DNA of 64,000 bases, from the sequence record MT446413.1; one strand, 5' to 3'. Both the position numbers and the translations under genes were made by a program. Shown piece by piece: positions 1,193 to 15,961 of this stretch (its first letter is position 1; every line of letters begins with the position of its first letter). Below the pieces are notes generated by a model. It searched no databases. It was given only the letters and a program-made list of their open reading frames with translations, and was not told where the DNA came from. This DNA is from Escherichia virus TH42.

Positions 1193-1726
1193 TTATACAC
1201 CTTTAGATGCAACTACACCACTACTACCGTTATAACGACCCTTCACTGCATAGGAATCATCACCAGCGTGAGAGTGTTCAAACATAACCATTTGACCAAC
1301 ACGCATCCCAGCACGAACTCGTAAGCTGTGGTTGTGAGTAACATTATGGAACTCAAAGGTCAGCTTACTGTTGTTAAACCCTGCATCAGCCCAACCAGCA
1401 TGGAGGTGGTTCAAGCCACAGCGAGCCATTGAGGAGCGGAGTACAAACAAACTTGAGATATTATCTGGAAGGTTAAACTCTTCCATTGAGTGAGCTAAGA
1501 AGAATTGTCCCGGAGTGATGACAATACCATCTTCAGGGATTTTCACTTCTTTCCACTTGAGATTTTCTTTAGCATCAATGTCAACAATGCCGTCAGCCTG
1601 TTCTTCAACAAGGATAGTATCACCAATACGGATATCCACGCTAGCAGCGTTAACATATTTATGCTCCGCATCTAAAAAGCCATTATCAATAACGTTGTGT
1701 AGTTCTTGAGAACCTAAAAGACTCAT
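1193..1726 (-). CDS. dcd: dCTP deaminase
   Basis: 177 aa; dCTP deaminase/dUTPase-fold motifs (SVDIRIGDT, FVLRSSMARCGLNH, GWADAGF). Confidence 0.8.
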   Translation of the reverse strand: MSLLGSQELHNVIDNGFLDAEHKYVNAASVDIRIGDTILVEEQADGIVDIDAKENLKWKEVKIPEDGIVITPGQFFLAHSMEEFNLPDNISSLFVLRSSMARCGLNHLHAGWADAGFNNSKLTFEFHNVTHNHSLRVRAGMRVGQMVMFEHSHAGDDSYAVKGRYNGSSGVVASKGV

Positions 1727-3159
1727 GAGTTTCTGTTTCCTTGTACAGATGATGCCAAATTGTTAATCATGTTACGAGCTGTTTCACGAGTCAGCGTAAC
1801 ACCTGCTAAGTTACTATCAAGTTCACCAACTAATTCACGAGCTGTTGCTCGGAGTTCTGCACCAAGTGCAGTGTTAGAATGAGCCAGACCATTACGACGA
1901 CCAACAGGTCGAGCGTCGTTAGCTAAAGATGCAAAGCCAGTACGAGCAGCTTCACGAGCCGCTATAGCTGCTACCCGATCTTCTGTAGGGGTTGGCAAAT
2001 CACCAACTTCTACACGTTCTATATCACTAGAACGTAGACCCTGAACAACAGAGCTAACTGTTTCCCATGAACGACGGGAACGCTGCAAATCACCCATAGA
2101 TGGAGAAGAAGCAGGTCGAACAGTTACTCCACCTGTATCATGAGTGACGTGCCATGTACGAGTACCCATTCCAGAAGAACGGGCACTACCAAAACTACCA
2201 GTGAAAGTATCACGAGGTGCCTCTGTAGCAGGTGCTGCGAATCTTGTCTGTTGCCAAGAGTCACGTCTGTCAGTTCCCGGAGTCCAAGGCTGCGTAATTG
2301 CTTCAACACCAATAGTGGTTAATTCACTAGACCAATCTGTCTGTAGGTTAACCTCTTCATCCAGATAGTTACGACCCGCTTCCTGAGGAATATTTAATAC
2401 AGTTTCCATCATCTTCAAGGTGTAGTGGCGACGTTGATTCTGATACAAGTTTACACCAGCCATAGGCCCAACTAAATCACTGATCAGATGAACTTCTGGT
2501 TCACCAAAAGCTCCCATTGCAAGGTGCATATACTCAGTAGAACTGCTGTAAACTGCAACTGTTGCTTCAGGCCACTTTTTGTGGACATACTTCATGTCAC
2601 GACTTGTCACCACAGGGATATCATTAGTATATGCCATTGCAAACATACCTTCGTTCGACACATACATATCATCGAGAGTCATAAACCCTTGACAAATCAT
2701 AGGGAAGCGACCTCTCAGAGTATCCATATCCAGAGGGAGGTTAATCATCATCTGAATCTTCACTTCGTCAATCTCCACTTCCAAAATCTCTTGGAAAGTG
2801 AAAAGTGCTTCAGCGTAATTTGTCCCACTAACAGGCTGAACTAGGCGAGATGTAGTTTGAAGCCCTTTACTCTCTGTCCAAGACAAGAAGTTGTCAAGGA
2901 ACAGTGCAGCATTACCCACGTTAGCAGGGCTGTTTTCCTGACGAGTGTTCCAACGAAATCCTCCTTGAACTAGGAAGATATCAACGTCATTCGGAGTTCG
3001 ATTTTGGAAGAACGTATCACGGATAGCACCACCCGCAATAACAGGATAGATACCATCAGGGACTACGTTATCTCTGATCAAATTACGAATCAGGTCAAGC
3101 CCTACACTGAGGGCTTCTCCTTCTTGAAGGTTTAATTCAGACAATGGAATCTTAATCAT
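1723..3159 (-). CDS. nucleotidyltransferase (CCA-adding / poly(A) polymerase head-domain family) with low-complexity C-terminal tail
   Basis: 478 aa; N-terminal VIAGGAIRDTFF...NDVDIF matches the Pol-beta NTase motif GGAVRD-x-LLG...DxD; last ~150 aa Arg/Ser/Ala-rich low complexity. Confidence 0.5.
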   Translation of the reverse strand: MIKIPLSELNLQEGEALSVGLDLIRNLIRDNVVPDGIYPVIAGGAIRDTFFQNRTPNDVDIFLVQGGFRWNTRQENSPANVGNAALFLDNFLSWTESKGLQTTSRLVQPVSGTNYAEALFTFQEILEVEIDEVKIQMMINLPLDMDTLRGRFPMICQGFMTLDDMYVSNEGMFAMAYTNDIPVVTSRDMKYVHKKWPEATVAVYSSSTEYMHLAMGAFGEPEVHLISDLVGPMAGVNLYQNQRRHYTLKMMETVLNIPQEAGRNYLDEEVNLQTDWSSELTTIGVEAITQPWTPGTDRRDSWQQTRFAAPATEAPRDTFTGSFGSARSSGMGTRTWHVTHDTGGVTVRPASSPSMGDLQRSRRSWETVSSVVQGLRSSDIERVEVGDLPTPTEDRVAAIAAREAARTGFASLANDARPVGRRNGLAHSNTALGAELRATARELVGELDSNLAGVTLTRETARNMINNLASSVQGNRNS

Positions 3160-3161
3160 TT

Positions 3162-3710
3162 CTACATTTTCCAGTTGAGAGATGGGGGATTCTTATAATC
3201 AAATCCTGCCATTTGGCAAAGACACATGTAAACCTTAACTGTTAAGTTAACGTCTTGCTCACAATATGTGAACATGTCTTCAGTGAATGCATCCCATGCT
3301 TCTTCCTGCTCACCATAATCACCCTTCAGTTCACCCAGAAATTCGCCCCATTGCTTGAGGCCATGACCACGAGGGCCATGTCTAGGGTCGCCTTTGGGAT
3401 ATTCTGGATTATCTCCAATACGGTCAGGCTTGAGATAACGACTCAGGCAAAGTGTATCAAAGACATTGAAGTGGAAAGGTATTACATGAGAGTAGAATTT
3501 AAAGAGAGCTGGTAGGTCAAAATCTATGATGTTGTGTCCTACAACTATATCAGCTTCCTTCAGTTTGTGAAGAGCTTCTTCAATTTGGTGAGGGCGATAC
3601 CCCCACCGTTCACCTGTAAGAACATCAAATATCCAGATACACCAGACATTTTGGATGCCCTCATAGAGATTATCACCCTCGATATCGAAGGCGAATATTT
3701 TCTTTACCAA
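3162..3710 (-). CDS. DnaQ-like (DEDDy) 3'-5' exonuclease
   Basis: 182 aa; Exo I FDIEGD, Exo II HNIIDFD, Exo III YCEQD motifs. Confidence 0.75.
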
Positions 3711-5494
3711 GGTCGTGCCTCCCCGTCTTGTGTGAGCAGAGAAGCTGCATCCTCACCATTGGTCAAGACAAACGGATTAGCTTCATCAACTTCGTGATCT
3801 TCTCGTTCTACAAGTCGACCTGTTTCATTGATATACTTGGTGTAGCAAACACCTGTCTGACCGTAGTTACGCTCCTTGAGAAGTCGTATGATTGACAAGT
3901 TCTTGCCTAACCCATCCGCTTGCTTATCTCGCTCAAAACCGATGATGCACTGACACCAACGCATCAGTGAACGTGAACCAGTGAACTGAACTTCTTTCAC
4001 CTGCCCACCTTCTTCGTGAGGAGCACCACCTGCCGGAGCATTCAAGTGAGATAATACAAAAGCAGTGAAGTCTAATTCCTTACACATACCAGCAAGCTCT
4101 GAAGCAATCTTACTGATTTCTGTATTCACCTCAGATGGAGTTAGGTGAGAAACTAATGCAGTGATGTTATCAAGAATGATAAACTTACACTGATTCTCAA
4201 CTACCCAGAAGCGAATACACTGCTTAATATCATCCCACTCATTCTGTCCGAAGTTGTCATACAAGAAGAACTTGTCAGCGTAACGGAGTGCTTCGTCACG
4301 TAGCTGAGATTCCTCATATTCAACATCAGGTCGGTGGAAAGGTACAGATGCTGATTTACCTGCAATGTTTTTAACAGACATGCCTACCTTCTCTTCCAAG
4401 AAGAAGCCACCACCATTAAAACCATGCTCAAGGCAAAGCCATGCTACCAGTTCGTGTGCGATTAAGGTTTTACCTGAACCAACACCACCACCGATTGCAA
4501 CCATCTCTCCCCAACGAATGCCGAAGGTCATTTCATTCAGAGTTTTCCACGGATAAGGAATACCCCATTCCGCTTTCTTCAGAGCGTCTTCTAAACAATC
4601 AAAGACAGTAACAGCACCAGCAGGTGATTCCCGCTTCGCTGAATATTTCAGATTGTTGAATAGCTCTTGACCTCGACCAGCGAGTAACATGTCATTTGCA
4701 TCTTTGATTTCCTTCTCTTGACCATTGTAAGTGAAGGTTCCTTTCGGAATACGAGCAAATTTAACATGGGGATATAATGCACGACCTTTAGTTAATGCAA
4801 TCTCACCTGCATCATCATTGTCCATGCAGAGCACAATCTCCTCAAAACCATTCAAGAAGTCACGGTTACGTGAGAGAACGGAAGAGATTGAACCTGCACC
4901 AAACGGTAGAGATACACACGCAGGTTTGATGTTTGTAGCGTTCGTGAACGCAGTGAGCACATGGAAGCCAGACATACAAGAGAGTGGGTCTTCAAAGATG
5001 AAGAGCTTCTTGTTGTACACGTCCCCGCGTTGTGCTTGAGCCATACCGAATAGGTCAGCTTCTTTAACACTGCCGATGTAATAGAATTTCTTGCTGTCTA
5101 GAAGCTTAACTTCATAACCAACAATGTTTCCATCACGTTCACGAGGGAAGAAGTAACTATCAGGAGTTTGCCCATCTGTCTGACTCAAACCAATACGGCA
5201 TTCATACCGTTCAGAGACAGCTTTAGGAATCAAACGACGAGTAAGCTCACCCTGAGGCAGCTCTAAGCAATCGTCTAAGATCTCTCGGAGTTCTTCAGGG
5301 GATAGTTCTTTCTTTTCATTCGGTGTAGGAGTTGTTCCCTTTTCGAAAACTTCATAACTACCACAACGATTACAACTGCCCCACTCTTCACCGGACTCTT
5401 CGTTTCGGAAGAGAATCATGTGATTGTGGGTCTTATCACGACCATGAGAGATACATTCTTTACAACCTGTATCCCCTAAAATGATCTTTGACAT
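3704..5494 (-). CDS. DNA primase/helicase (T7 gp4-like)
   Basis: 596 aa; N-terminal Cys4 zinc motif (CKEC...CNRC), TOPRIM-like middle, Walker [10 protein letters not shown] and DnaB-like helicase C-terminus. Confidence 0.85.
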
Positions 5495-5530: not shown

Positions 5531-5737
5531 TCAATAAAACGAACGTATTTCTTCCCACACATCATCTTGAAGACTTTTAAAACCCTGTAAAGCTGATTGG
5601 GTTCTCATGATAAAATCTTCAGAATGTTTATTGCGGTCAAGCATACTGACAAACTTGTCATAGCGGTTAATCTTCCACCGTAACTTTAAGTAGTCAGACT
5701 CGAGCTTTCTCAGCTTCTGTCGCTCAGTTACTGTCAT
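5531..5737 (-). CDS. hypothetical protein
   Basis: Start placed at internal ATG (MTVTERQKLRKLE...) preceded by AGGTGA SD; the longer track ORF (to 5836) would overlap the upstream gene by >100 nt. Confidence 0.3.
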   Translation of the reverse strand: MTVTERQKLRKLESDYLKLRWKINRYDKFVSMLDRNKHSEDFIMRTQSALQGFKSLQDDVWEEIRSFY

Positions 5738-6155
5738 CCTGATCACCTGCCAGATACGCTGTCCAGTCGCCAGATTCAACCAGAACATCTTGTTCTTCGT
5801 CGATATGATAAATCCATGCTTCCACAGTTTCACCACTATCCAGCACTACTGGAATTAGTGTACGATTGTAGAAAGTGTATGGATTGTCTTTACCACGATA
5901 ACCTTCCAGACCGTCATACGGACCTTCCAAACCAGCTTGAGTTGTTTCAAATACTTCCACACGAACAGGCTTGCCATTGCTGTCGTGCTCCAGAGACACA
6001 CTTGGGAAGTATGCTGTGCAATACTGATACAGGTTACAGTTGTTCACTGTCCAACCCTCACCAATAGACACACCACCGGCACGAGCATTGATAGCGTGGT
6101 TGTGTTGACCTTTTCTCAAGCTGCCGTAAGTTGCTACTAATACTTTATCAGACAT
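5724..6155 (-). CDS. gamma-glutamyl cyclotransferase-like (GGCT/AIG2 fold) protein
   Basis: 143 aa; N-terminal ATYGSL motif and size typical of GGCT family. Confidence 0.5.
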   Translation of the reverse strand: MSDKVLVATYGSLRKGQHNHAINARAGGVSIGEGWTVNNCNLYQYCTAYFPSVSLEHDSNGKPVRVEVFETTQAGLEGPYDGLEGYRGKDNPYTFYNRTLIPVVLDSGETVEAWIYHIDEEQDVLVESGDWTAYLAGDQDDSN

Positions 6156-6220
6156 TATATTACCTTTTGTGTTTCAGTTAAATTTGAACTAGCCCCCTCT
6201 TCCGAAGAGGCTAAAGCAAA

Positions 6221-6406
6221 TTATTCTACTTCGAAGTGTTTGATCACACCAGTCAACACGTCAGATTGGAATGTACCTACCAACTCTACTCCTCGGAAGA
6301 AGTTAACACTTGTTCCAAGTGATTCAAAGCGATCTGCTTGAATATCTAGAGATTGAATATTACCTTCTGAGTTTACTGTACGAAACATGATTGTGTATTT
6401 ATTCAC
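6221..6406 (-). CDS. hypothetical protein
   Basis: 61 aa ORF, co-oriented and tightly packed (stop overlaps next start). Confidence 0.35.
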   Translation of the reverse strand: MNKYTIMFRTVNSEGNIQSLDIQADRFESLGTSVNFFRGVELVGTFQSDVLTGVIKHFEVE

Positions 6407-6645
6407 AGAGTTGTTACTCCCTTATCTTCTTGTGCAATTGCGATGATACGCTCAACACATTCCATTGAATATTTATCACCTCGTTTAAGGAAGGTGACAA
6501 TTGCAGAGAACTGATTACCAATCATTCTCTTGTTTGTGATTCCAAACTCTTCACAGAGTTGGTTAATAGCTTTACGAGAACCAACAATCAGAGGTTCTTT
6601 TTGTTCGGTCATTCCACGACTGATCAAATCTTCGATAGACAACAT
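6403..6645 (-). CDS. hypothetical protein
   Basis: 80 aa ORF in operon context. Confidence 0.4.
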   Translation of the reverse strand: MLSIEDLISRGMTEQKEPLIVGSRKAINQLCEEFGITNKRMIGNQFSAIVTFLKRGDKYSMECVERIIAIAQEDKGVTTL

Positions 6646-6665
6646 TACAAATTCCTTTTGTTTAA

Positions 6666-7913
6666 TTACAGAGTTACTGCCACTTCACTACCTTCAACAG
6701 TTACAGACTCTAACTTACGAGGGTTGTGGACTTGTTGCGGATGAACCGGAACGTTCCAGCCACTGCGGTAGAAGTTACGACCATCGCAGAACAGAATGAC
6801 ATTGGCAGACATTGCATTAGGTTGCAGGTTGTTATGAACATGACGAATATCTGCAATCCAGTAACCACGAGACAACACATAACCAGTAGGTGCATTACGG
6901 ATTGTCTGAGTATTCATCTGACCTTCCAGTTGCATTTCTTCAGGAACTACATCCACTGAATCAACCGGCTGTGCGACTTGGCCTTCCAGTGCGAAGTTTT
7001 CATCATCAGCACTTTCACTGTCAGCAACCAATTCACCATCTCCATCTTCAATTGGAGCTTCAACAGGAGTCTGGTAAACCACTTTATACTGAGGAGTATA
7101 GAGAGGGTTTTGAGCTTTAACAAACTCAAGGATGTTGTGACGGTAGGTATCCAGAGTTGTACCAGTCAGGCCCGGTGCTGTATTAACTTCCAGTACCCAT
7201 GCTTCTCGACCTTTGGTAATGATATCAACTGCACCAAAATCCAGACCCATCGATTCAACGGCCTTCACTGCGTTGATCAGAGATGTATCGTTCGGAACAT
7301 CCGTAAAAGAGCTTGAGTAAACCCAACCAGTGTGATGGTTACGAACATCTTCACGATAGTTAGGGTCTTCACGATAACCATTACGACGAATTTTCTTCTG
7401 AACATAGGTGATTGCACCTTTGAACACATGGACACGCCATTCACGACGTGGGCCTTGAATACCTTTGGTGTACAGTTCAGCTTGACCAACTGAATCACGA
7501 GGCTCAACAACAATAATACCCGAACCAGAGTGACCAGTCAGTTCATGACGTTCATACACAATGTTGCCAGAGTTTGACCACTCCTGAGCAATCTCTTGAA
7601 CATCTGTATACTCAACAGTTTTAACACCTGCTTGGTCCATCACGCTGAAAGCACGACGTTTGTTCGCTGCCATGTGTAAGGCTGCGGTACGGTTAAGAAC
7701 AGTTGCAGAACCAAAGAAGGATTCAGGATAGCGGCGGTTTCCGTAGTTCACAACCACATCACCCTCACGAGAACGCCAGCGACTGTTCTCAGAAAGAAGA
7801 CCCATTACGTTAGCGTTGATACGTTCATCACGGATAGTATCACTAATGGCAGTTACCAGAGCGTTAACAGAATCAGAAGGGCCATACGGAAGAACACGGA
7901 TACGAGTAGTCAT
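6666..7913 (-). CDS. ATP-grasp family ligase
   Basis: 415 aa; ATP-grasp C-terminal signature DFGAVDIITKGREAWVLEVNTAPGL, upstream GSGIIVVE; acidic C-terminal extension. Confidence 0.65.
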   Translation of the reverse strand: MTTRIRVLPYGPSDSVNALVTAISDTIRDERINANVMGLLSENSRWRSREGDVVVNYGNRRYPESFFGSATVLNRTAALHMAANKRRAFSVMDQAGVKTVEYTDVQEIAQEWSNSGNIVYERHELTGHSGSGIIVVEPRDSVGQAELYTKGIQGPRREWRVHVFKGAITYVQKKIRRNGYREDPNYREDVRNHHTGWVYSSSFTDVPNDTSLINAVKAVESMGLDFGAVDIITKGREAWVLEVNTAPGLTGTTLDTYRHNILEFVKAQNPLYTPQYKVVYQTPVEAPIEDGDGELVADSESADDENFALEGQVAQPVDSVDVVPEEMQLEGQMNTQTIRNAPTGYVLSRGYWIADIRHVHNNLQPNAMSANVILFCDGRNFYRSGWNVPVHPQQVHNPRKLESVTVEGSEVAVTL

Positions 7914-7915
7914 TT

Positions 7916-8146
7916 TTAGATACCTTTTAGTTTAAGAATTTCGTTACGACAGGATTGAATTTTAACTTCGATTTCCCAATACTTGGCGAACATCTCGTCT
8001 TCTTGGTCATCGCTTGGTGAATCAATTAGGTTAAAAGCAAACGGATACAGCTTTCGCTGCTCCGTTACCAGTTGTTGAAGTCGGAGTTGTTGATACTCCA
8101 GCATTGTCAGGTGAGGCTTAGCTCCCTTGCTTGACATGAGGCTCAA
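7916..8146 (-). CDS. hypothetical protein
   Basis: 76 aa ORF in operon context. Confidence 0.35.
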   Translation of the reverse strand: MSLMSSKGAKPHLTMLEYQQLRLQQLVTEQRKLYPFAFNLIDSPSDDQEDEMFAKYWEIEVKIQSCRNEILKLKGI

Positions 8147-8351
8147 CTTTAATCCCCTTCAATTTCACATAGTCAGCCAACACGTTGTTGATAACGGTTG
8201 GGAAAGGGATTTCAACTGGAGAGTTAACCAGTCCCCCAATACCTTCTTGCATCCATTTCTGAATAGCTCGAAGGTTATCACATCCTGTGCTTGTCATTGG
8301 GATACGTCGAGTGGTTACAACGTTATCCAACATCAATTTACGAACTTCCAT
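8118..8351 (-). CDS. hypothetical protein
   Basis: 77 aa ORF in operon context. Confidence 0.35.
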   Translation of the reverse strand: MEVRKLMLDNVVTTRRIPMTSTGCDNLRAIQKWMQEGIGGLVNSPVEIPFPTVINNVLADYVKLKGIKVEPHVKQGS

Positions 8352-8362
8352 AACTTCACCTC

Positions 8363-10366
8363 TTAATGTTTACCTTTACAGTAATCTGAATTACAGATCA
8401 CCCTGTTTTCTTTGTTTAGTGAGCAAACTTCTGCATCACGCCACGGAATTTGTTTATAACAGACTGCACAAAACCCAATTGAAGTCCAGAGGGCTTTTGT
8501 GAACTCAGCTGTTCGTTGTCCGTCGTAACTGACAACTGTTTTTCGGAGAGTTGTTTGCTTTTCTGGAAATGTTTCCGCTTTCTCAGCGGGCACCTCCTTT
8601 GGGGCATTCTTTGGACCATAAACAGAGATGGCATAGGTATCGCCACCACGTTTTTCCAAGTAAGAGTTTGGAACATCAGACAATTCAATGTCACCAGAAC
8701 GTTTAGCTGAGCTGACCATTACAATCATCCGGCTAAGCATACGCTGATCAACACGAACTGCTACTTCAGGGCGACGTGGGTTGGTTGTGTCAACTGCTTT
8801 AGTCCAAATGTAACCTTCAGACAATGTAGTGTTAGTCACTTTGTCTTTGATCTCTTTGGCACAGACATAACAAATATCTTCACCACGAAGTTTACTCATT
8901 TCGTTATCAAACTCGAAATCAGTTTTAACATTGCCACATACAGCACAGACACCCAAAGGAATGTCTTCATCTTCTTCAGACGGTTTGGACAATGCTTCGA
9001 AACAGGCCGGATGCCAATATGCTTGGTAAGCGAACACAGCTTTCTTAGCATCTTTCCATTCAATGTGCTTGTCACAACCGCCACAATCACCATGAGAATG
9101 TGATTCCCAGAACTTACGGGTGACTTCCACACCATTCTTAGTGATGAAGGAGTCTTCTAAATCAAAAGGGATATCATCATCAAAATCAGCGGTGGTGCTT
9201 TGAGGCTCCTTATCGGTAGCATCAACAAACAGCCCTGAAGTGAGTACGAGGCGAATCATACTGTCCACTTCGGAGATACAAGCAACCGTCCCGCGATACA
9301 CCACCTTTGGGTTTTCGAGAGCCTTCAAGTATTCACTCTTGGCTACATTATGAACATCACCCTCAACATACTCTTGAGCAGCGTCATCATAAATATAACC
9401 AACCATCTTACCACGGTCAGTGTTGTTGTAAGCGTGGAACTCGTGAGGGATGATATCCACACGACCGTCACGACGATACGGAAGACCACGATCGGCAGCC
9501 AGTTTATTCTGATCTTCAATCGCTTTACGACGACGAATGTCTCCGCTTGTCACGCCGGGCTTGTCGTCTTTGTTTCCGTAAATGTCGCTTGTGCTGCTGC
9601 TTGATTTGTTTGTCTGTTGGTTCTGATACAGAGAGGAGTTCGAGTAATAGCCGCCCCAGCGACTCGTTACCGTAAAAACCGGAAGCTTGTGCTCCACCTC
9701 TTGAGTCAGAGTCATACGGTTGCCAGACAAATCAAAGATGTATTCAGTTCCCACTTTACACTCAAAGTGATCATTGATACGGTTCTTGTGTGACTTGGAA
9801 CGATTAAGAATCCACATCAACATATCTTCTTCAGAAGCACCAAACCAATCCAGACCACAACGGGCCAGATGGAAAGGACGTTCATCATTACGAATGATAT
9901 GCAGAGTATTGTCTTTGGCGTCATGCCAGATTAAAGTGAACGCACCATCCAACTTCTGGATAGTCTCTGCTGCACCAATGGTGTTGATTGAATGACAGAT
10001 GTTTTCGCTATCAACTTCGAAATTCTTATGATCTGGTAATAGTTCCTGATCTAACAGTGTACCATTATGAACCAGAGTAATGTCACCATGAGAGAAAGGG
10101 TGAGCATTTCGAGCATTGACAGCACCACGTGTGGCATGTCGGCTATGACCAACAATCCACGATGGAGGAACTACATAGTTCGTAAGCCCCTTAGTAAGAT
10201 TCGTGTACCCTGTCTGGAGCATAAAGGCATAGGAAGGAAGTGCTTCTTTATAAGAAAATACTTTTTCATCACCTTTACGCTGACCGAACACACCAGTTGA
10301 GTGCTGACCACGGAAGACTCCAGCATACAGAAGCTGGTTGAATACGTCTAAGTCTGTGGAGGTCAT
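8363..10366 (-). CDS. class II (Ntn) glutamine amidotransferase domain protein with C-terminal multi-Cys zinc-ribbon region; true start probably AUU at 10396
   Basis: N-terminal ~250 aa align to PurF/GlmS-type GATase (RGQHSTGV, VGHSRHATRGAVNARNAHPF, ITLVHNGTL); C-terminal half has several CxxC pairs; nucleophile Cys lies upstream of first ATG. Confidence 0.7.
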   Translation of the reverse strand: MTSTDLDVFNQLLYAGVFRGQHSTGVFGQRKGDEKVFSYKEALPSYAFMLQTGYTNLTKGLTNYVVPPSWIVGHSRHATRGAVNARNAHPFSHGDITLVHNGTLLDQELLPDHKNFEVDSENICHSINTIGAAETIQKLDGAFTLIWHDAKDNTLHIIRNDERPFHLARCGLDWFGASEEDMLMWILNRSKSHKNRINDHFECKVGTEYIFDLSGNRMTLTQEVEHKLPVFTVTSRWGGYYSNSSLYQNQQTNKSSSSTSDIYGNKDDKPGVTSGDIRRRKAIEDQNKLAADRGLPYRRDGRVDIIPHEFHAYNNTDRGKMVGYIYDDAAQEYVEGDVHNVAKSEYLKALENPKVVYRGTVACISEVDSMIRLVLTSGLFVDATDKEPQSTTADFDDDIPFDLEDSFITKNGVEVTRKFWESHSHGDCGGCDKHIEWKDAKKAVFAYQAYWHPACFEALSKPSEEDEDIPLGVCAVCGNVKTDFEFDNEMSKLRGEDICYVCAKEIKDKVTNTTLSEGYIWTKAVDTTNPRRPEVAVRVDQRMLSRMIVMVSSAKRSGDIELSDVPNSYLEKRGGDTYAISVYGPKNAPKEVPAEKAETFPEKQTTLRKTVVSYDGQRTAEFTKALWTSIGFCAVCYKQIPWRDAEVCSLNKENRVICNSDYCKGKH

Positions 10367-10473
10367 GTTGCCCCCAGCTAATACGATACCACAAATTTTC
10401 TAATCCACCTGAAGGGTAAACCCTTTCATCTAATTAACCTTTAAATGCGCCCTTTATCAGAGCGCCCATTGTG

Positions 10474-11574
10474 TTACAGCAGTCGTTCTAATTGCATTTC
10501 CAGATGGTCTGGAATGTAACCAGTGACGTTATCATCACTGCTACCTGATTCACGCATCAGAGCAAACATGTGACGAATTTCACGAACCGTTGCGATTCGA
10601 GTGTTTTCAATCTGAGGGGTGTAATAGGTCAGGATCTCTTCGTAAACAGAGTTGGCATTACCACGTACATATCCCAAGAAACCGTAGAAGTCGCCCATAT
10701 CACGCAAGTTGATAAGGATTTCACCATCAGGTCCAGTCTGCTGTACACGAACACGACCAACCAGAGTAACAGAATGTTCACGACAGAACAGAATATCACG
10801 AGCCAAACGATAACCGCCAGTCAGGTCATCATCATTAGGTGTGTAGTCCAGAGGCAGATACTGAATCATAGGAGCGAAGCGTAGCTCATTCAGTTTCTCA
10901 ACATATGCTTCATTATCCAAATCTGCATACTCAACAGCCAGTTTCTTGAGAACCAAGAAGCGGTTGACCAGATTAAGGAGTTGGCTTTTCTTCCACTTTG
11001 GCTCTGAGATACGAAATTCAACAGAACCAAACTGAGCCAGAGGTAATAGGTTAAGGGAGGTGTACTTGTCCCAGCTATTAACAAGAGTATTGAAGAAGGC
11101 TTCACCATCTCGGTTGAACGCTGCGGAAGCATTCATTACCTGTGCTTGAACAACAGCAAAGGCAGGACAGAAGTTGCTACGATAGCGATGGTATCCAGAA
11201 CATTTGAACATCATCTTTTCATAGAACGTCCATCCAAGAATTACTTTCTTCAGGATGTTACTATCAGCGTCACGCATATCCATATGAACGTGAGTAGAGC
11301 AGCGCCAAGTCCCTTCAGCTTCAGAGTCTTGTACTGCTTCACTCAGATTGTTAATAGCACTAAGCAATTCTACACCGTTGTAAGGCCGTGCACAAACCAT
11401 CTCACAGCCATCACGAAGTGAACCATCTTCAGTACAAACCCAAAGGTCTGCATCAATTTCAGAGGTTCCTTCAACTTCCAGCTCGATGCCAATACCACAC
11501 TGAAAAGCGATGCTTGGGTGCGGCTCAGCCAGACGAGCATTACGGTATCCAAAAACTTGTGCTACGGTTGTCAT
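10474..11574 (-). CDS. amidoligase (Amidoligase_2-type, glutamine-synthetase-like fold)
   Basis: 366 aa; GIGIELEVEG, EDGSLRDGCEMV, CSTHVHMD motifs. Confidence 0.7.
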   Translation of the reverse strand: MTTVAQVFGYRNARLAEPHPSIAFQCGIGIELEVEGTSEIDADLWVCTEDGSLRDGCEMVCARPYNGVELLSAINNLSEAVQDSEAEGTWRCSTHVHMDMRDADSNILKKVILGWTFYEKMMFKCSGYHRYRSNFCPAFAVVQAQVMNASAAFNRDGEAFFNTLVNSWDKYTSLNLLPLAQFGSVEFRISEPKWKKSQLLNLVNRFLVLKKLAVEYADLDNEAYVEKLNELRFAPMIQYLPLDYTPNDDDLTGGYRLARDILFCREHSVTLVGRVRVQQTGPDGEILINLRDMGDFYGFLGYVRGNANSVYEEILTYYTPQIENTRIATVREIRHMFALMRESGSSDDNVTGYIPDHLEMQLERLL

Positions 11575-12197
11575 AACGTTTCCACCAACTCTACATTATA
11601 TGATGACAGATCTGAAGAAATATGCTTGAACTTCTCCAGAAGATTTAAAGATTGACGACCATTGTCGCCGTAACCAGCAGAAAGATCAACTTGACCTACA
11701 AGTGCCCCTTTGTAATAAACTTTACCATCGACAGGGTTGATGTAGATGAAGCGAGTAACCAGACCTTCGAAGTCAGGATTAAACAGATTATACACCAGCT
11801 CTCCCGGAATCGAACGACCCATTGAAGGAGGTGCACCACGTAATTTGTTCCCCATCAGACCCTTAGCTCGCTGACGAACAGGGTTGATATGAGTCCAGCT
11901 TACCATGTTGTTGCCGTGTTGTAAGTATCCCACATCTGGAGATTCCAGAATAAGGCTTTGATCAAACACAGGAATGCCCTGAACAACCTGTCGTTCAAAC
12001 TGCCCTTCGGCGTTCTTAGACCAGCGTTCAACTTCAAAAGTTAAGGCCATTTCTGCTTCGTGAGAGAAGTCATCTTCTCCAAAGCGGTTTGCTTGGTTCA
12101 CGTTGAGTACATAAAGAGGTAAATTAATCCCTCGTTCTGCACGTTGGGCAATCCATGTTCCGCAATAATAATGCTGAAAATCTCTTAACAGGCTCAC
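11571..12197 (-). CDS. hypothetical protein (amidoligase cluster member)
   Basis: 208 aa; start overlaps upstream stop; no motif recognised. Confidence 0.4.
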   Translation of the reverse strand: MSLLRDFQHYYCGTWIAQRAERGINLPLYVLNVNQANRFGEDDFSHEAEMALTFEVERWSKNAEGQFERQVVQGIPVFDQSLILESPDVGYLQHGNNMVSWTHINPVRQRAKGLMGNKLRGAPPSMGRSIPGELVYNLFNPDFEGLVTRFIYINPVDGKVYYKGALVGQVDLSAGYGDNGRQSLNLLEKFKHISSDLSSYNVELVETL

Positions 12198-12206
12198 GAT
12201 AACACC

Positions 12207-13013
12207 TTAGATAATCTGGAGTTTAGAGGAGAATTTATCCGCTTCTTTAACATCGTTGCTATTGATGATGTTGTGAAGCTTTTCGATAGGCAGACGGGAG
12301 TGCAGAGACATGAGAATTTCCATATCACAGCCCTGAATAACCTTATCAACTTGATCGTAAACAAACTTACGAGTGGACTGTTCACCAATCCAGAAGTTCG
12401 ACAGAGAACGATATTCAATACCGTAATCTTTATAACGAATAGCAGATGCCTTGCCGTAAAGTTCTTTACGACGAGTGTCCTTATCCATAATTACTGCTGG
12501 AAGTGACAGGAAGTAATCACACAGAACACCCAGCATCATCTGAGTCTGTCGAGTTACTTCCAAAGACCCTGCAACACCGAGGTGTACGTGACCGCCAGCA
12601 GTACGCAGACCTTTGTCTGTCGCTACCGGAGATGGGTTTTTCTGACCAGTGAAGGCGTTGAAATCAGGAGTACAGCCAAACACAAAGGCTGATGGATGGA
12701 ATGATTGCAGCTCTTCAGAAGTGTACACATGAGAACTAATCCCAAGTGCAGCTTCCATACCACGTTCATTAAGAACTTTGTTGGTCAGATCAATACCACG
12801 CTGGATGTTATCATCAAACGCTTCGAACCCTTTCTGTGGGTTAATATCGAATTCAGCCAGAACGTTGTCTTCTTGAAGACGAACATCAGGGGCCAGATCG
12901 ATTTTGTTATCTTTAGAACAGCCCAGCTTACCAGCCACAGAGGTGATAACACCAGAAGCAGTACGAACAAACATTTCAGGGTCAGAACCAATAAGGAAAG
13001 CACGCTTAGTCAT
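12207..13013 (-). CDS. putative COOH-NH2 ligase-type amidoligase
   Basis: Start at internal ATG with GGAG SD (track ORF begins at GTG 13058); MTKRAFLIGSDPEMFV and GGHVHLG resemble GCS2/COOH-NH2 ligase family; tentative. Confidence 0.45.
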   Translation of the reverse strand: MTKRAFLIGSDPEMFVRTASGVITSVAGKLGCSKDNKIDLAPDVRLQEDNVLAEFDINPQKGFEAFDDNIQRGIDLTNKVLNERGMEAALGISSHVYTSEELQSFHPSAFVFGCTPDFNAFTGQKNPSPVATDKGLRTAGGHVHLGVAGSLEVTRQTQMMLGVLCDYFLSLPAVIMDKDTRRKELYGKASAIRYKDYGIEYRSLSNFWIGEQSTRKFVYDQVDKVIQGCDMEILMSLHSRLPIEKLHNIINSNDVKEADKFSSKLQII

Positions 13014-13956
13014 TGTAATACTCCACAAGTTCATCAAAAAGGGAAACAACACGGGCACCAGCTTCTTCTGGTGTCATTGAGGAAGGTACTGCTTGCATCA
13101 AGCGTTCAATAAAACTGCGAACAGTAATTCTGTCCATACGCTGATCTAATACTTCACGTTTATGGCCTGCACACATTGACCAGAGACGCAACCACTCACT
13201 CATACTTTCGTAATAGTCAGGGTCTTGGTCACGACGACGAGCCATACGGCGGAGAACTCCGTCATTATGGTTTCGTACATAACCATCTCTGTTATCGTCA
13301 ATACCAAATACATTCTGAACCCATACGTTTTCAGAAAATTCATCAGTTGAACAGACCAGTGGCAAGAATGCGATTGCACTCATATCGCCAGTAAAATAGG
13401 TCGCTGCTGATTCATCATCAGTGTCTACATCATTTGAATAAGACCAACGACCAAAGAAGTTACGACTCAAACCGGCTAAACGTAAAGCTAAGCTGATTCG
13501 TTGTCGCTTGAGTAACTCTTCCTTGTCTTGAACGCCTTCCTGAAGGAACTCCATTCCCATAAAATCTCCATCCAGATAACTCCGGAGGGTCATTAATCCA
13601 GTAAACACCTTGTCTGCTGGGTGGTCTCGAAGGTTCACGGCAACTGAGTTCACCGAAGTGACAGAGAACATGTTTTTATAGCAAGACATTGAGTTAAAAA
13701 TGTCTGTTGCTTCAACTAAAGCTCTTTCGATATCTTTAGCTGGTACGCCATAAAAATTGTGAGGCCAGAAGTTAATAACTCCAATTTCTGAAGTTCTATC
13801 ACGAAGGCTTGAGAGATTGATACTGTCGCCATTAATGTCTGTAACAGAATACATATGCTGACAGTTGAAAGTACCAAAACAAGCTCGCCCTCTGAACACT
13901 GACTCACCAAAGTCCCCTGATGGTGTTACCGGAGCAGTCGATGCGGAGATTGACAT
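13006..13956 (-). CDS. hypothetical protein (amidoligase cluster member)
   Basis: 316 aa ORF, co-oriented, overlaps neighbours by a few nt. Confidence 0.45.
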   Translation of the reverse strand: MSISASTAPVTPSGDFGESVFRGRACFGTFNCQHMYSVTDINGDSINLSSLRDRTSEIGVINFWPHNFYGVPAKDIERALVEATDIFNSMSCYKNMFSVTSVNSVAVNLRDHPADKVFTGLMTLRSYLDGDFMGMEFLQEGVQDKEELLKRQRISLALRLAGLSRNFFGRWSYSNDVDTDDESAATYFTGDMSAIAFLPLVCSTDEFSENVWVQNVFGIDDNRDGYVRNHNDGVLRRMARRRDQDPDYYESMSEWLRLWSMCAGHKREVLDQRMDRITVRSFIERLMQAVPSSMTPEEAGARVVSLFDELVEYYND

Positions 13957-13964
13957 ATTCGCCT

Positions 13965-15182
13965 CTATTTATTGAAGAATAATTTTTCCAAAATGTTTTC
14001 CCACTCTTCTGAGGGACGTACTGTATAATTACTACCTGTCAGTCCATTGGACATACTACTGATAATGTTATACATGTTGTAGCTTCGAGCTGAAGCTGTT
14101 TCATTGTTCCAGTTATAACCGAACACAATTTTAGCAAAAGATGTTTCAGATTCAGCCACCTCTCGGATAAATTCAACCAAGAGTGACTTTTCTGTGATGA
14201 TTGGTCGGGTATCTTCCGACAGATGGCAATATTGAGGCAAAAGGATTGGCAAGAACATCGAATTGTTCACTCGACAATCACGAACACCTTCACTGCGATA
14301 GATCAGACTGGAGAAGTCTTCATCACGCAGGTGGCCTTCACCTTCAGTGTATTCACACTGTCGCCATTTGGTCTGGCGAGGCTCAACCATTGTACTACCA
14401 ACACCCACTGTATACAGAGATGCTTGGAAGATACAGGAATCGTAATCATTCCCTGTTAAAGCAACACGTTCGTTACCGAACACATCCACTGAAGAGTTGA
14501 TCAGTCGGCTGAATGCAAGAGAGGCTAAAGGAGACCAGCCCTTCTTATACATCTTGTTCAACATTTCATACACAGCAGATTTTTCATCATCTGTATAGAA
14601 TGTGCGATTCAACATCAGATAGAACAGAGCACGATCAGCGGGACAGCCATCAGTACAAACACCCATGAACCCTACTTCATGCCATACCAGACATGAGTCA
14701 AGGTCTTTATCCATGAATGCTGCAAAGGTTTCCATAACAACACGATCAGTGATATCAGGACGGTTGTTTTCTTCTGCCCATGTTTCCACATGAGAAGGAG
14801 GACGAGGGTCTTCATTTTCTAACCCTTCACGGAAATACTGAGTAGCGATATATTCAGTATCACCATAACATCTTACACCGTGAGCTGGAAGATGTGTTCC
14901 GGAGTTCCAGATATACTTGATTTCAGACATAGGCAACATATTCTCAAGAACGTTCTCTTCAGCAGTGCCTTGACGAACCATCATATTTCCACTCCACACC
15001 TTGATGCGGATATTCCAGCCGAAATTACTATCGTATGTATTATAGTAATCAGGATCACCATCTTCATCTTCGTCATAATCACCACCCTGATAGTAACCTG
15101 CTTTCAGGAAACCATAACAAGGGGGCCAGACGGTTACAACGTCTTCTGATTCTTTCCAGCTTTGAAGTGTTACAGGGAACAT
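13965..15182 (-). CDS. hypothetical protein (amidoligase cluster member), acidic N-terminal tract
   Basis: 405 aa ORF; DYDEDEDGDPDYY tract; no motif recognised. Confidence 0.45.
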   Translation of the reverse strand: MFPVTLQSWKESEDVVTVWPPCYGFLKAGYYQGGDYDEDEDGDPDYYNTYDSNFGWNIRIKVWSGNMMVRQGTAEENVLENMLPMSEIKYIWNSGTHLPAHGVRCYGDTEYIATQYFREGLENEDPRPPSHVETWAEENNRPDITDRVVMETFAAFMDKDLDSCLVWHEVGFMGVCTDGCPADRALFYLMLNRTFYTDDEKSAVYEMLNKMYKKGWSPLASLAFSRLINSSVDVFGNERVALTGNDYDSCIFQASLYTVGVGSTMVEPRQTKWRQCEYTEGEGHLRDEDFSSLIYRSEGVRDCRVNNSMFLPILLPQYCHLSEDTRPIITEKSLLVEFIREVAESETSFAKIVFGYNWNNETASARSYNMYNIISSMSNGLTGSNYTVRPSEEWENILEKLFFNK

Positions 15183-15193
15183 CTTTTACCTCT

Positions 15194-15556
15194 TTACTCT
15201 GCTACCAAAAGGCTCAGAGATTTACGAATGTAGGCAATGCTACGGAAGTTTCGATAGTTCTCTTGGAAGCGCATCTTTTCAAATTCTGCTTCCTGAAGTT
15301 CTACCTCTGCTGCATTGTATCCTGCCACAGCCAAACTCACCACATCCTGAGGTAAGGTATTACGACGACGAATAAGATATTTATTCGCCTTTAGTTTGCT
15401 TTGTGCACGAGCCATTTTGGCCTTTGCCGCCTTAATGCCATGAGCAATCCAGAGCAGTTGCTGCTCCAAATCATTCTCGTCCATGCCACCCAAATCATTT
15501 GCTACTTTATGCAGCGTAGACAGGTTCACATGGCCTTTGATGGGGCGTAGGTTCAT
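15194..15556 (-). CDS. hypothetical protein
   Basis: 120 aa ORF; start ATG overlaps stop of upstream small ORF (ATGA). Confidence 0.4.
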   Translation of the reverse strand: MNLRPIKGHVNLSTLHKVANDLGGMDENDLEQQLLWIAHGIKAAKAKMARAQSKLKANKYLIRRRNTLPQDVVSLAVAGYNAAEVELQEAEFEKMRFQENYRNFRSIAYIRKSLSLLVAE

Positions 15557-15720: not shown

Positions 15721-15740
15721 ACAACCTCTTCTTTGAACTT

Positions 15741-15765
15741 AAAAAAGGACTCTCCTAAGAGAGCC
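15741..15765 (-). terminator. intrinsic terminator (minus strand)
   Basis: Minus-strand RNA GGCTCTC-TTAG-GAGAGTCC followed by UUUUUU. Confidence 0.45.
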
Positions 15766-15904
15766 AAGCTTTAAGGCCAATTAAATAGATATCACCCAAT
15801 ATCTGTGGATAACCTGCTCTTAAAATATTCTATCCGACGGATGTTCGAGGACTATTCCTCTCCCTAGCATCGGCCCCATACGGGTAAGATTAAATTAAGT
15901 TTAG

Positions 15905-15956
15905 GTTAGTTGAGCCAGAATAGCTCACATAGCCCTCTGATACTCACAAGGGCTAT
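15905..15956 (-). repeat. conserved composite RNA element, copy 1 (8-bp hairpin + TCAACTAACC on minus strand)
   Basis: Plus: GGTTAGTTGAG...ATAGCCCT-ctgatactcaca-AGGGCTAT; immediately 3' of gene 15962..16210. Confidence 0.5.
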
Positions 15957-15961
15957 AGATG

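Follow-up and report, generated by a model that had tools for sequence, protein, structure and literature searches.

What does a run of minus-strand genes for amide-bond enzymes, lying next to the replication genes, provide to a coliphage? The question was addressed for a 64,000-nucleotide stretch of Escherichia virus TH42 (MT446413.1), referred to as the window. The phage is a Gordonclarkvirinae coliphage with a DNA identity of 99% to TH34 and 96-98% to ECBP2 and Bas88. An earlier annotation of the same DNA (the sequence-only reading) had described a nine-gene cluster between replication genes and small early genes. Its eight larger ORFs were all recovered on the minus strand with the same coordinates, and the position of the cluster was confirmed by a primase/helicase gene. 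The count of nine was not retained: the run comprises 12-14 genes, with four small ORFs interspersed among the eight larger ones, and its former boundary blends a widely conserved core of 6-7 genes with lineage-specific genes. The features are as follows.

3704-5494, primase/helicase, neighbour of the cluster (small early genes at the other side)
5724..6155, minus strand, GGCT/GGACT-like gamma-glutamyl cyclotransferase, 143 aa (PF06094 (GGACT/AIG2), E 7.6e-16; phrog_2520, 7.5e-43)
6221-6406, minus strand, small ORF, 61 aa, lineage-specific
6403-6645, minus strand, small ORF, 80 aa, lineage-specific
6666..7913, minus strand, RimK-family ATP-grasp ligase, 415 aa (PF08443, 3e-4; NCBIfam MptN, 5.8e-9; PHROG 2599, 1e-171)
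7916..8146, minus strand, small ORF, 76 aa, lineage-specific
8118..8351, minus strand, DUF7195 small protein, 77 aa (PF23825, 1.4e-18; homologs in Aeromonas and Pseudomonas phages)
8363..10396, minus strand, class II (Ntn) glutamine amidotransferase (GATase), 677 aa (GATase_6, 9e-15)
10474..11574, minus strand, Amidoligase_2, 366 aa (PF12224, E 1.7e-6; phrog_7469, 3e-143)
11571..12197, minus strand, 208-aa protein modelled as tandem small beta-barrels, between two GS-like ligase genes
12207..13013, minus strand, COOH-NH2 ligase type 2, phiEco32-type, 268 aa (PF14395, E 4e-8; phrog_3815, 2e-112)
13006..13956, minus strand, 316-aa protein (hhalign to Aeromonas gp137, same position, E 4.6e-5)
13965..15182, minus strand, 405-aa protein (hhalign to Aeromonas gp136, E 4.4e-4; HMM to L011 c227, E 3e-3)

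The cluster is the already known "gamma-glutamyl amide" or "peptidoglycan modification" cassette of phiEco32, LUZ24 and RIO-1, and is not novel. The cassette was defined by genome comparison in 2009-2013, and cell-wall peptide modification or superinfection exclusion was suggested as its function (Iyer et al., 2009; Hardies et al., 2013). Genes, gene order and genomic position in the window are the same as in phiEco32, LUZ24 and phiRIO-1 (Iyer, Abhiman, Burroughs, Aravind, 2009; Hardies et al., 2013; Duhaime et al., 2017), with no essential difference; extras of the window are the four small ORFs including DUF7195, the 316-aa and 405-aa upstream genes, and an ATT start of the GATase gene. Within the same phage group, ECBP2, SU7 and Bas88 carry the phiEco32/LUZ24-type cassette at 88-99% DNA identity. 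Pfam family PF14395 takes its name from the phiEco32-type cassette, which is present in hundreds of phages (COOH-NH2 ligase homologs in 310 phage records). The sequence-only reading had correctly stated that surveys noted these genes in phiEco32-like phages. Its statement that the product is not known still holds, as no experimental study of the cassette was found in a literature search, nor any demonstrated substrate or product. The cassette is a known orphan pathway, a real and well conserved gene set whose enzymes form and cleave amide bonds of the glutamate type.

Conservation was evaluated across 49 complete cassette loci of unrelated phages. The COOH-NH2 ligase was present in 49, the Amidoligase_2, the GATase and the ATP-grasp ligase in 48 each, and the adaptor of about 200 aa (the 208-aa protein of the window) in 41. 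COOH-NH2 ligase, adaptor and Amidoligase_2 genes are nearly always contiguous in this order; the remaining core comprises a RimK-like ATP-grasp ligase, a GATase that carries zinc ribbons at its C-terminus, and GGCT or Peptidase C26. Synteny across more than 80 phage loci shows clustering far beyond chance. The DUF7195 gene, itself a conserved cassette member, occurs in 16 of 84 loci, each time between the GATase and ATP-grasp genes, a junction at which it is conserved in the entero/pseudomonad branch. The cultured bacterial hosts encountered for cassette phages are E. coli, Pseudomonas, Vibrio, Aeromonas, Sinorhizobium and cyanobacteria, and the pair of amidoligase and GATase has also been reported in viruses assigned to archaea. 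No transmembrane or signal-like segment was detected in any cassette protein, which indicates a cytoplasmic pathway. Cassette homologs of phage SU10 were detected as early gene products by proteomics.

Profile searches upheld the ATP-grasp, amidotransferase, amidoligase and GGCT calls of the sequence-only reading. Five cassette enzymes were assigned to families and have intact catalytic residues. As predicted from sequence, the 268-aa COOH-NH2 ligase is a carboxylate-amine ligase of the GCS2 superfamily (invariant D11/E13, H142/H144 and E200-Y-R202), and the 366-aa Amidoligase_2 is a glutamine-synthetase/GCS-like carboxylate-amine ligase, with GxExExE, HxH and ExR motifs invariant among 22 diverse homologs; sequence searches with the latter detected no solved relative. 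The ATP-grasp call was weak in Pfam and strong in PHROG. In this protein a catalytic core (approximately residues 1-260) is followed by an acidic linker and then by a small domain at the C-terminus (phrog_20552); K85, E158, R160, K174, D230, E242 and N244 are invariant. Its profile is nearest to alpha-L-glutamate ligases, matching RimK/alpha-L-glutamate ligase structures in the PDB at 4e-13 and MptN at 5.8e-9. The scores fall well short of all family cut-offs (MptN, 35 versus 350 bits; RimK, 24 versus 331), and the protein is therefore not a RimK or MptN ortholog. RimK, which glutamylates ribosomal protein S6, and the alpha-L-glutamate ligases MptN, CofF and LysX are its closest solved and curated relatives, from which it differs by the extra C-terminal domain.

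The GATase gene starts at 10396 with an ATT codon preceded by the Shine-Dalgarno sequence AGGTGG 8 nt upstream, so that the catalytic Cys directly follows the start (M-CGIVLAGG); initiation at the first ATG (10366) would remove this residue. R86/T89/N-G/D align with R73/T76/N98-G99/D123 of GlmS, which hold glutamine or a gamma-glutamyl moiety by its free alpha-amino and alpha-carboxyl groups. A low-complexity linker and a beta-rich middle region lead to the C-terminal 240 residues, in which four CxxC pairs confirm the zinc-ribbon region noted earlier. Zinc ribbons were found in all four phage groups checked.

Such ribbons could bind nucleic acid, and the primase/helicase gene is located no more than 5 kb downstream of the cassette in 26 of 43 loci. 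Both observations are compatible with the proposal of the sequence-only reading that the cassette makes a base adduct. A glutamyl or aminoacyl adduct would explain why Gordonclarkvirinae resist the tested restriction-modification systems without any known modification pathway, yet with 12 EcoRI and 30 EcoRV sites retained in the window. Phage thymidine hypermodification (5-hmdU kinase and aGPT-Pplase; glutamyl- or putrescinyl-thymine) is likewise encoded by multi-enzyme clusters near replication genes and joins glutamate or an amine to its substrate. However, those pathways have no amide-forming ligases, and their defining enzymes are absent here: no thymidylate-synthase-like hydroxymethylase, 5-hmdU DNA kinase, aGPT-Pplase, DpdA/TGT transglycosylase or glycosyltransferase was seen. 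The dCTP deaminase, formerly taken as a hint of modified DNA, is a normal enzyme feeding the ordinary dTMP route via ThyX, which the phage group encodes (5e-43); the P-loop kinase, cited for the same reason, is annotated as dNMP kinase and has no significant Pfam match. Palindromes containing all four bases are strongly avoided (601 observed, 803 expected), which indicates DNA under restriction pressure. CCWGG occurs once, GATC at a ratio of 0.48, GAGCTC 0 times (11 expected) and CTGCAG twice (19 expected). DNA of the LUZ24-like phage U17, which carries the same cassette, is readily digested by 11 of 16 restriction enzymes. No cassette enzyme family is known to act on nucleic acids. DNA hypermodification is thus disfavoured as the least supported of the earlier candidates, and we regard it as very improbable.

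The hydrolases point to another kind of substrate. In the GGCT, which is confirmed as called earlier, the YGSL motif and the D-x-LEG motif with the catalytic Glu are conserved among 46 homologs. Variant cassettes without GGCT encode a true Peptidase C26 (PF07722, 1e-16), which the window lacks. GGCT and/or C26 occur in 47 of the 49 complete loci in a near-complementary distribution (27 / 13 / 7 / 2). This implies an essential step in which a gamma-glutamyl amide whose alpha-amino group is free gives up its amine. We know of characterised GGCT/GGACT and C26 enzymes acting on free small gamma-glutamyl compounds only, none of them protein-bound. These hydrolase types favour a small metabolite, also among the earlier candidates, and a small molecule, for instance a polyamine, an amino acid or a short peptide, is the most likely acceptor, not DNA.

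We tentatively propose a soluble, cytoplasmic, early-expressed pathway of ATP-driven gamma-glutamyl ligation and release that acts on a small amine or peptide. The earlier idea of a multi-step route building and trimming a glutamyl or amino-acid adduct is supported in this respect. From the observed enzyme families, intact catalytic motifs, gene order, co-occurrence and homolog expression, we infer the following steps, with their order, substrate and product likewise deduced from the enzyme families. On an acceptor that bears an amine, ATP would be spent to assemble a small amide or peptide containing glutamate, and a gamma-glutamyl group would later be removed. First, COOH-NH2 ligase and Amidoligase_2, both of GS/GCS fold and presumably tethered by the 208-aa protein, would form one carboxylate-amine bond each, at least one of them a gamma-glutamyl amide. 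Second, the Ntn GATase would pass glutamine-derived ammonia to one of the ligases for carboxylate amidation, or else hydrolyse a gamma-glutamyl amide. Third, the RimK-like enzyme would attach an alpha-linked L-glutamate to a terminal carboxylate. Fourth, GGCT (C26 in other phages) would take off the gamma-glutamate and free the amine, yielding 5-oxoproline with GGCT and glutamate with C26. The pathway may serve host takeover, counter-defence or precursor recycling. Three gamma-glutamyl-cleaving activities per cassette appear redundant, which counts against this pathway; the putative ammonia-donor role of the class II GATase would be the sole explanation.

The proposed logic is that of three known systems. 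Glutathione synthesis and the gamma-glutamyl cycle combine the same three kinds of enzymes (GshA of GCS fold, ATP-grasp GshB, GGCT/ChaC), with formation of a gamma-glutamyl bond, lengthening of the peptide and release of 5-oxoproline. However, the phage ligases are not orthologous to GshA or GshB, the phage ATP-grasp enzyme is RimK-like, the cassette has an adaptor, an Ntn amidotransferase and another GS-like ligase in addition, and nothing points to cysteine or glycine as substrates. The Puu/Pau pathway for polyamines and other amines likewise couples an ATP-dependent GS-fold ligase (PuuA) to a gamma-glutamyl hydrolase (PuuD, Peptidase C26), but the phage ligases belong to the GCS2 and Amidoligase_2 branches and not to GlnA/PuuA, oxidase and dehydrogenase steps are absent, and the window has GGCT in place of C26. 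During formation of the butirosin side chain, the ATP-grasp enzyme BtrJ gamma-glutamylates and the GGCT-type BtrG deprotects the amine by removing the gamma-glutamyl group. The cassette shares this pair of an ATP-grasp and a GGCT-fold protein, without the carrier protein (ACP), decarboxylase and monooxygenase.

Published opinion prefers peptidoglycan peptides as the target (Iyer et al., 2009; Hardies et al., 2013), which counts against the small-molecule pathway. In the cytoplasmic precursors UDP-MurNAc-peptide or lipid II, the stem peptide would receive amino acids or amide groups from the ligases at its free carboxylates, and the wall would be changed after infection, e.g. excluding superinfecting phages or tuning lysis. 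The stem peptide offers three free carboxylates, as many as there are ligases, and contains a gamma-D-glutamyl bond; its glutamine-dependent amidation is established chemistry (MurT/GatD, AsnB/LtsA), and to our knowledge all of the cultured bacterial hosts listed above have DAP-type peptidoglycan. On the other hand, GGCT, C26 and Ntn-GATase chemistry requires a gamma-L-glutamyl group whose alpha-amine is free, and the glutamate of peptidoglycan is D-configured and N-acylated by L-Ala. Every cassette protein is cytoplasmic, wall remodelling would be a slow route to superinfection exclusion for strictly lytic phages, the amidoligase and GATase pair is also reported for viruses assigned to archaea, and the literature search retrieved no experimental support. 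Archaea are taken to be without peptidoglycan. This target is considered doubtful.

The 208-, 316- and 405-aa proteins, formerly listed as unrecognised, have no match in Pfam or NCBIfam and belong to PHROG families only (1e-69 to 1e-199). The 208-aa protein is probably non-catalytic and models as tandem small beta-barrels of Tudor/SH3/KOW-like type, with a flexible conserved loop, P-x-R-Q-x-x-K-G, as signature. Where carried, its gene sits between both GS-like ligase genes and directly adjoins both in nearly all loci. Barrels of this type typically bind peptides or nucleic acids, and recognition by adaptor, zinc ribbons and divergent upstream proteins could direct the ligases to a protein. Glutamate or a short Glu-containing peptide would then be placed on a lysine or the C-terminus of a host or phage protein, modelled on RimK glutamylation or PafA/Dop-type isopeptide chemistry, and the hydrolases would trim or reverse the mark. 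Membership of the ATP-grasp enzyme in the RimK family, two GS-fold ligases similar to a PafA/Dop pair, the ribbons kept in all groups checked, the barrels, and accessory proteins that evolve fast like host-interaction modules agree with such tagging. The substrates of RimK and of the GS-fold Pup ligase PafA are proteins, which speaks against a small acceptor. Nevertheless, protein tagging is distinctly unlikely: a conserved tag-like small protein was not found (neither DUF7195 nor the 208-aa protein has a conserved C-terminus), the known GGCT/GGACT and C26 substrates are of the free, small kind mentioned above, and no modified protein is mentioned in the accessible part of the SU10 proteomics paper.

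The 316- and 405-aa proteins can be placed, as borderline cases, in a divergent family that accompanies the cassette, has the motif PAD[KRQ]xFxxLxxxR and is encoded immediately upstream of the COOH-NH2 ligase. The former, with only 17-18 homolog clusters, is probably a divergent member, tied to the family further by HMM links; its AF2 model (pLDDT 66) gave no fold match. The latter is possibly a second, more divergent copy from this family. It had no PDB match and is confined to coliphage Gordonclarkvirinae and close relatives, with 21 representatives in 1.84 billion proteins and homologs in 97 phage records, every one from Escherichia/Shigella or unnamed-host phages. Zinc ribbons, a Tudor/SH3-like adaptor and fast-diverging 316/405-aa proteins are more typical of macromolecule recognition and count against a small-molecule pathway. 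The 61- and 80-aa ORFs (6221..6645) occur only in Gordonclarkvirinae-type loci and match phrog_8339.

The region 5700-15200 was 99.3% identical to Escherichia virus TH34, 98% to the BASEL phage StefiGeyer (Bas88), 96% to ECBP2 and 88-90% to SU7-type phages; 98 phage records matched in total. Because of these identities, the window was taken to cover most of a Gordonclarkvirinae podophage genome, from a relative of phiEco32. All ORFs named in the sequence-only reading were present on the minus strand, and its enzyme-family calls were all upheld by Pfam, PHROG and profile searches. The count of nine genes had to be abandoned, since four small ORFs are interspersed among the enzymes. One of these, DUF7195, belongs to the conserved gene set of the cassette. 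The principal genes, with the evidence for the enzyme families, are as follows.

5724-6155, minus strand: GGCT (GGACT/AIG2), PF06094, E 7.6e-16 across the full domain
6666-7913, minus strand: RimK-type ATP-grasp enzyme, weak in Pfam (3e-4), PHROG 1e-171
8118-8351, minus strand: DUF7195
8363-10396, minus strand: class II amidotransferase (GATase), GATase_6, E 9e-15
10474-11574, minus strand: Amidoligase_2, E 1.7e-6
11571-12197, minus strand: 208-aa protein
12207-13013, minus strand: COOH-NH2 ligase (COOH-NH2_lig), E 4e-8
13006-13956, minus strand: 316-aa protein
13965-15182, minus strand: 405-aa protein

The five core families (COOH-NH2 ligase type 2, PF14395; Amidoligase_2, PF12224; class II GATase; ATP-grasp; GGCT) were co-oriented, and each exceeded the Pfam cut-off or had strong PHROG support. 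The cassette of about 9.5 kb makes up roughly 12% of the genome and lies in the early/replication arm of the podophage, with primase/helicase downstream. In the Bas88 annotation the genes occur in identical order between primase/helicase on one side and an extended series of small early genes on the other. Gene order was also kept in PAA2, Aeromonas phage 4_4572 and 39 IMG/VR loci.

The cassette is a known and named system of orphan function and not a discovery of this work; PF14395 itself is named "Phage phiEco32-like COOH.NH2 ligase-type 2". Later papers give Iyer, Abhiman, Burroughs and Aravind (2009) and Hardies et al. (2013) as the source of the system. Elsewhere it is described as the seven-gene peptidoglycan modification cassette of phiEco32, 7-11, LUZ24, PaP3, tf, PA11, RIO-1 and CW02, or as the peptidoglycan modification module. 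A proteomic study of SU10 detected the homologs of the ATP-grasp enzyme, GATase and GGCT as early gene products. No experimental work on the cassette was found in the literature to mid-2026.

Upstream of the run, 240 nt at 15721-15961 are free of genes, and a good hairpin of the terminator type (GGCTCTCTTAGGAGAGTC), with a run of T after it, is located at 15748-15765 on the minus strand. From this arrangement, a transcription unit of its own probably begins with the cassette. Close upstream of GGCT, at 6181-6154, there is a sigma-70-like site with 10/12 matches. The phiEco32 middle-promoter motif TAATGTATA gave a single match, which is chance level, and was dropped.

The catalytic residues of the enzymes were compared within their families. 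In GGCT, the YGsL and lD.LEG motifs for substrate binding and the catalytic Glu were conserved in 46 homologs and read YGSL and D-x-LEG in the window. The ATP-grasp family profile matched RimK and alpha-L-glutamate ligase structures over about 200 residues (4e-13), and its ATP-Mg residues K85, E158, R160, K174, D230, E242 and N244 were invariant. Orthology to RimK, MptN or CofF was not obtained at the curated cut-offs (35.4 bits versus 350 for MptN, 24.1 versus 331 for RimK). Acidic, HxH and ExR motifs were intact in both glutamine-synthetase-like ligases. For the Amidoligase_2, COOH-NH2 ligase, 208-aa and 405-aa families, no PDB match was obtained by sequence or by profile.

The GATase start at 10396 was confirmed as an ATT codon preceded by AGGTGG as Shine-Dalgarno sequence, giving M-CGIVLAGG. 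The first ATG would drop the catalytic Cys, and ATT alone supplies the obligatory N-terminal Cys; an M-C-G N-terminus was found in 4/4 phage groups. The glutamine/gamma-glutamyl-binding residues of GlmS (R73, T76, N98-G99 and D123, aligned to 1xff) were conserved. Four CxxC pairs occur at the C-terminus, and homologs of three other phage groups end with one to three zinc ribbons. Within the C-terminal 440 residues, zinc ribbons were recognised and no known synthase domain was matched; the gene adjoins that of a glutamine-synthetase-like ligase in nearly all loci. Among 76 homologous genes of unrelated cassettes, the codon before the catalytic Cys was ATT in 13, ATG in 57, TTG in one and CTG in one. 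ATT-start genes were those of the window (10394-10396, minus strand) and of loci L006-L009, L012, L019, L047, L050, L052, L071, L074 and L076. The frequency of this rare start suggests that translation of the glutaminase is deliberately low or regulated.

Homologs of the COOH-NH2 ligase were found in 310 phage records (121 Pseudomonas, 93 Escherichia, 22 Vibrio, 11 Aeromonas, and others). For the anatomy of the cassette, 80 IMG/VR loci were seeded on this ligase and their ORFs classed with locally iterated HMMs; components were counted in the 49 loci having at least 3 kb on either side.

Table. Occurrence of cassette components in 49 loci
COOH-NH2 ligase: 49/49
Amidoligase_2: 48/49
Class II GATase: 48/49
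ATP-grasp: 48/49
208-aa family: 41/49
GGCT: 34/49
DUF7195: 13/49

Wherever the 208-aa family was present, the order COOH-NH2 ligase, 208-aa protein, Amidoligase_2 was constant, with direct adjacency in nearly all cases, and the GATase gene nearly always touched one of the two ligase genes. Variant cassettes contained a recurrent neighbour gene of about 230 aa, which encodes a Peptidase C26/class I amidotransferase, a gamma-glutamyl hydrolase of the PuuD type (PF07722, 1e-16). GGCT only was present in 27 of the 49 loci, C26 only in 13, both in seven and neither in two. Because of this near-complementarity, an enzyme freeing an amine from a gamma-glutamyl amide appears almost obligatory, and on these gene contents amine release is a near-universal step of the predicted pathway. 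C26 genes, mostly in cassettes without GGCT, were located in L045, L047, L049, L053, L055, L062, L068 and L070, and also in L005 (2953-3645). Many C26 variants carry a further conserved protein of about 230 aa (ORF clusters c20/c59) directly after the ATP-grasp gene.

No membrane or signal segment was present in any cassette protein, which places the chemistry in the cytoplasm. The substrates of GGCT, C26 and Ntn amidotransferases must all carry a gamma-L-glutamyl group whose alpha-amine is free, and to our knowledge GGCT and C26 have been characterised on small molecules only. The glutamate of peptidoglycan is D and N-acylated. Free gamma-glutamyl amides therefore fit these enzymes better than peptidoglycan or a protein-bound mark, which argues for a substrate that is a free cytoplasmic gamma-L-glutamyl compound. 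We tentatively prefer such a small molecule, at somewhat less than even confidence. The published proposal of a cell-wall peptide modification that blocks superinfection was advanced on bioinformatic grounds only; action on a peptidoglycan precursor is unlikely, as a D, N-acylated glutamate suits the release chemistry less well. A macromolecular target is possible in view of the zinc ribbons, the adaptor built of barrels and the fast evolution of the upstream proteins. Modification of a protein is nevertheless quite unlikely, given the poorer fit of a bound mark to the needs of GGCT, C26 and Ntn enzymes.

An ATP-driven pathway of gamma-glutamyl ligation and release is proposed as the most likely mechanism. 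The two ligases of GS/GCS fold, held on the 208-aa protein as adaptor, would form two carboxylate-amine bonds, with ammonia for one of them probably supplied by the amidotransferase. The RimK-like enzyme would attach an alpha-linked glutamate, and GGCT (or C26) would take off a gamma-glutamyl group. Glutathione synthesis and turnover, the gamma-glutamylation of amines in the Puu/Pau pathways and the protecting group of butirosin biosynthesis are established systems to which this scheme would be analogous in its logic. In a speculative and rather improbable extension, podophages would use such ribosome-independent glutamate conjugation to make a novel gamma-glutamyl peptide or amide, for instance an amidated tripeptide resembling glutathione or a polyamine bearing a gamma-glutamyl group, and would thereby reprogram host metabolism or disarm host defence.

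A hypermodified DNA base, also put forward in the sequence-only reading, turned out to be the least supported candidate, as the defining enzymes were not seen, restriction sites are avoided and DNA of phage U17 is cut. The phage group has ThyX (PF02511) and an ordinary dCTP deaminase; dUMP/dCMP hydroxymethylase, 5-hmdU DNA kinase, aGPT-Pplase and the base-exchange enzyme DpdA were found neither in the window nor in the Bas88 annotation. In the whole window (1-64000), restriction-type 6-bp palindromes with all four bases numbered 601 versus 803 expected. GAGCTC was observed 0 times versus 11 expected, CTGCAG 2 versus 19 and GATC 145 versus 302, and CCWGG had one site in 64 kb. Such strong avoidance is the signature of DNA exposed to restriction. 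In addition, DNA of the LUZ24-like phage U17, which has the same cassette, was cut by 11/16 restriction enzymes. DNA modification by the cassette is unlikely, and as a reading of its function it is given very low probability; part of the total probability is assigned to none of the four readings.

Gordonclarkvirinae are reported to be resistant in vivo to EcoRI and EcoRV. As 12 EcoRI and 30 EcoRV sites are left in the window, some anti-restriction mechanism is likely, which need not be the cassette. Several proteins near the dCTP deaminase lacked a Pfam match, among them, directly beside it, a 478-aa "nucleotidyltransferase" (about 1723-3159, minus strand). In SU10 it is termed CCA-adding-enzyme-like, and the BASEL authors proposed the nucleotidyltransferase, not the cassette, as a candidate for DNA modification. 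A search of ten cassette proteins with the PADLOC defence HMMs gave no match. On the speculative reading of a novel gamma-glutamyl product, the cassette might contribute to the unexplained restriction and defence resistance of Gordonclarkvirinae and leave the DNA bases untouched.

At least 310 sequenced phages have kept the cassette. Their hosts are Escherichia, Pseudomonas, Vibrio, Aeromonas and others, marine ones included, and some of these phages are under development for therapy. By size and retention the cassette is one of the most extensive conserved sets of phage enzymes of orphan function. The question has stood in the literature since 2009 and was not opened here; it was sharpened by definition of the invariant core, by the near-universal gamma-glutamyl amine release, by the argument for a free cytoplasmic gamma-L-glutamyl substrate and by the low likelihood of DNA modification. 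If its product were identified, phage auxiliary metabolism would be extended by a new type, and a new route past host defences might be exposed. Bas86-88 are tractable phages, for which E. coli K-12 serves as host once its O-antigen has been restored, and size, conservation and tractable hosts make the cassette a worthwhile experimental target.

Residues 106-113 of the 208-aa protein (P-x-R-Q-x-x-K-G) are the most conserved of the family and lie in a loop predicted by AlphaFold to be disordered; on this model, the loop might reach into the active site of a ligase or serve as a site of modification. DUF7195 and the 208-aa protein were checked as Pup/LysW-like carriers, a Pup-type tag being a small disordered protein with a conserved C-terminal Gln/Glu, and were rejected since neither C-terminus is conserved.

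The 316-aa protein had few relatives, a mediocre structure model and no fold match; three findings tie it to other cassettes. First, hhalign aligned its family (E 4.6e-5) with the Aeromonas phage protein encoded at the same position. When this homolog was added to the family for a profile search, one protein was gained and no more. Second, directly upstream of the cassette, at a median distance of 18 nt, iterative searches converged on a divergent family of 41 ORFs in 38 loci that shares the motif PAD[KRQ]xFxxLxxxR. Third, Kuravirus homologs of the 316-aa protein were the next-best matches to this upstream family (E 0.008). The 405-aa protein was confined to coliphages of this subfamily, with weak links to the upstream family (Aeromonas gp136, E 4.4e-4; another upstream protein, E 3e-3). 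Paralogy of the 405-aa and 316-aa proteins was rejected as unproven, the hhalign score of 19.7 being equalled by 11/100 column-shuffled controls. Pseudomonas PAA2 orf18 and orf19 gave no signal against either family.

Several relatives have an HNH homing endonuclease inside the cassette, which is absent from the window. ECBP2, E20-1, SU7 and EK010 matched in two pieces and exceeded the window by about 520-620 bp, and UFV-P2 ORF24 belongs to the same context of HNH insertion. In Aeromonas phage 4_4572 (L004, 16009-18789), the cassette is followed by genes for PRPP synthetase and nicotinamide phosphoribosyltransferase (NAD salvage), a neighbourhood that may be coincidental.
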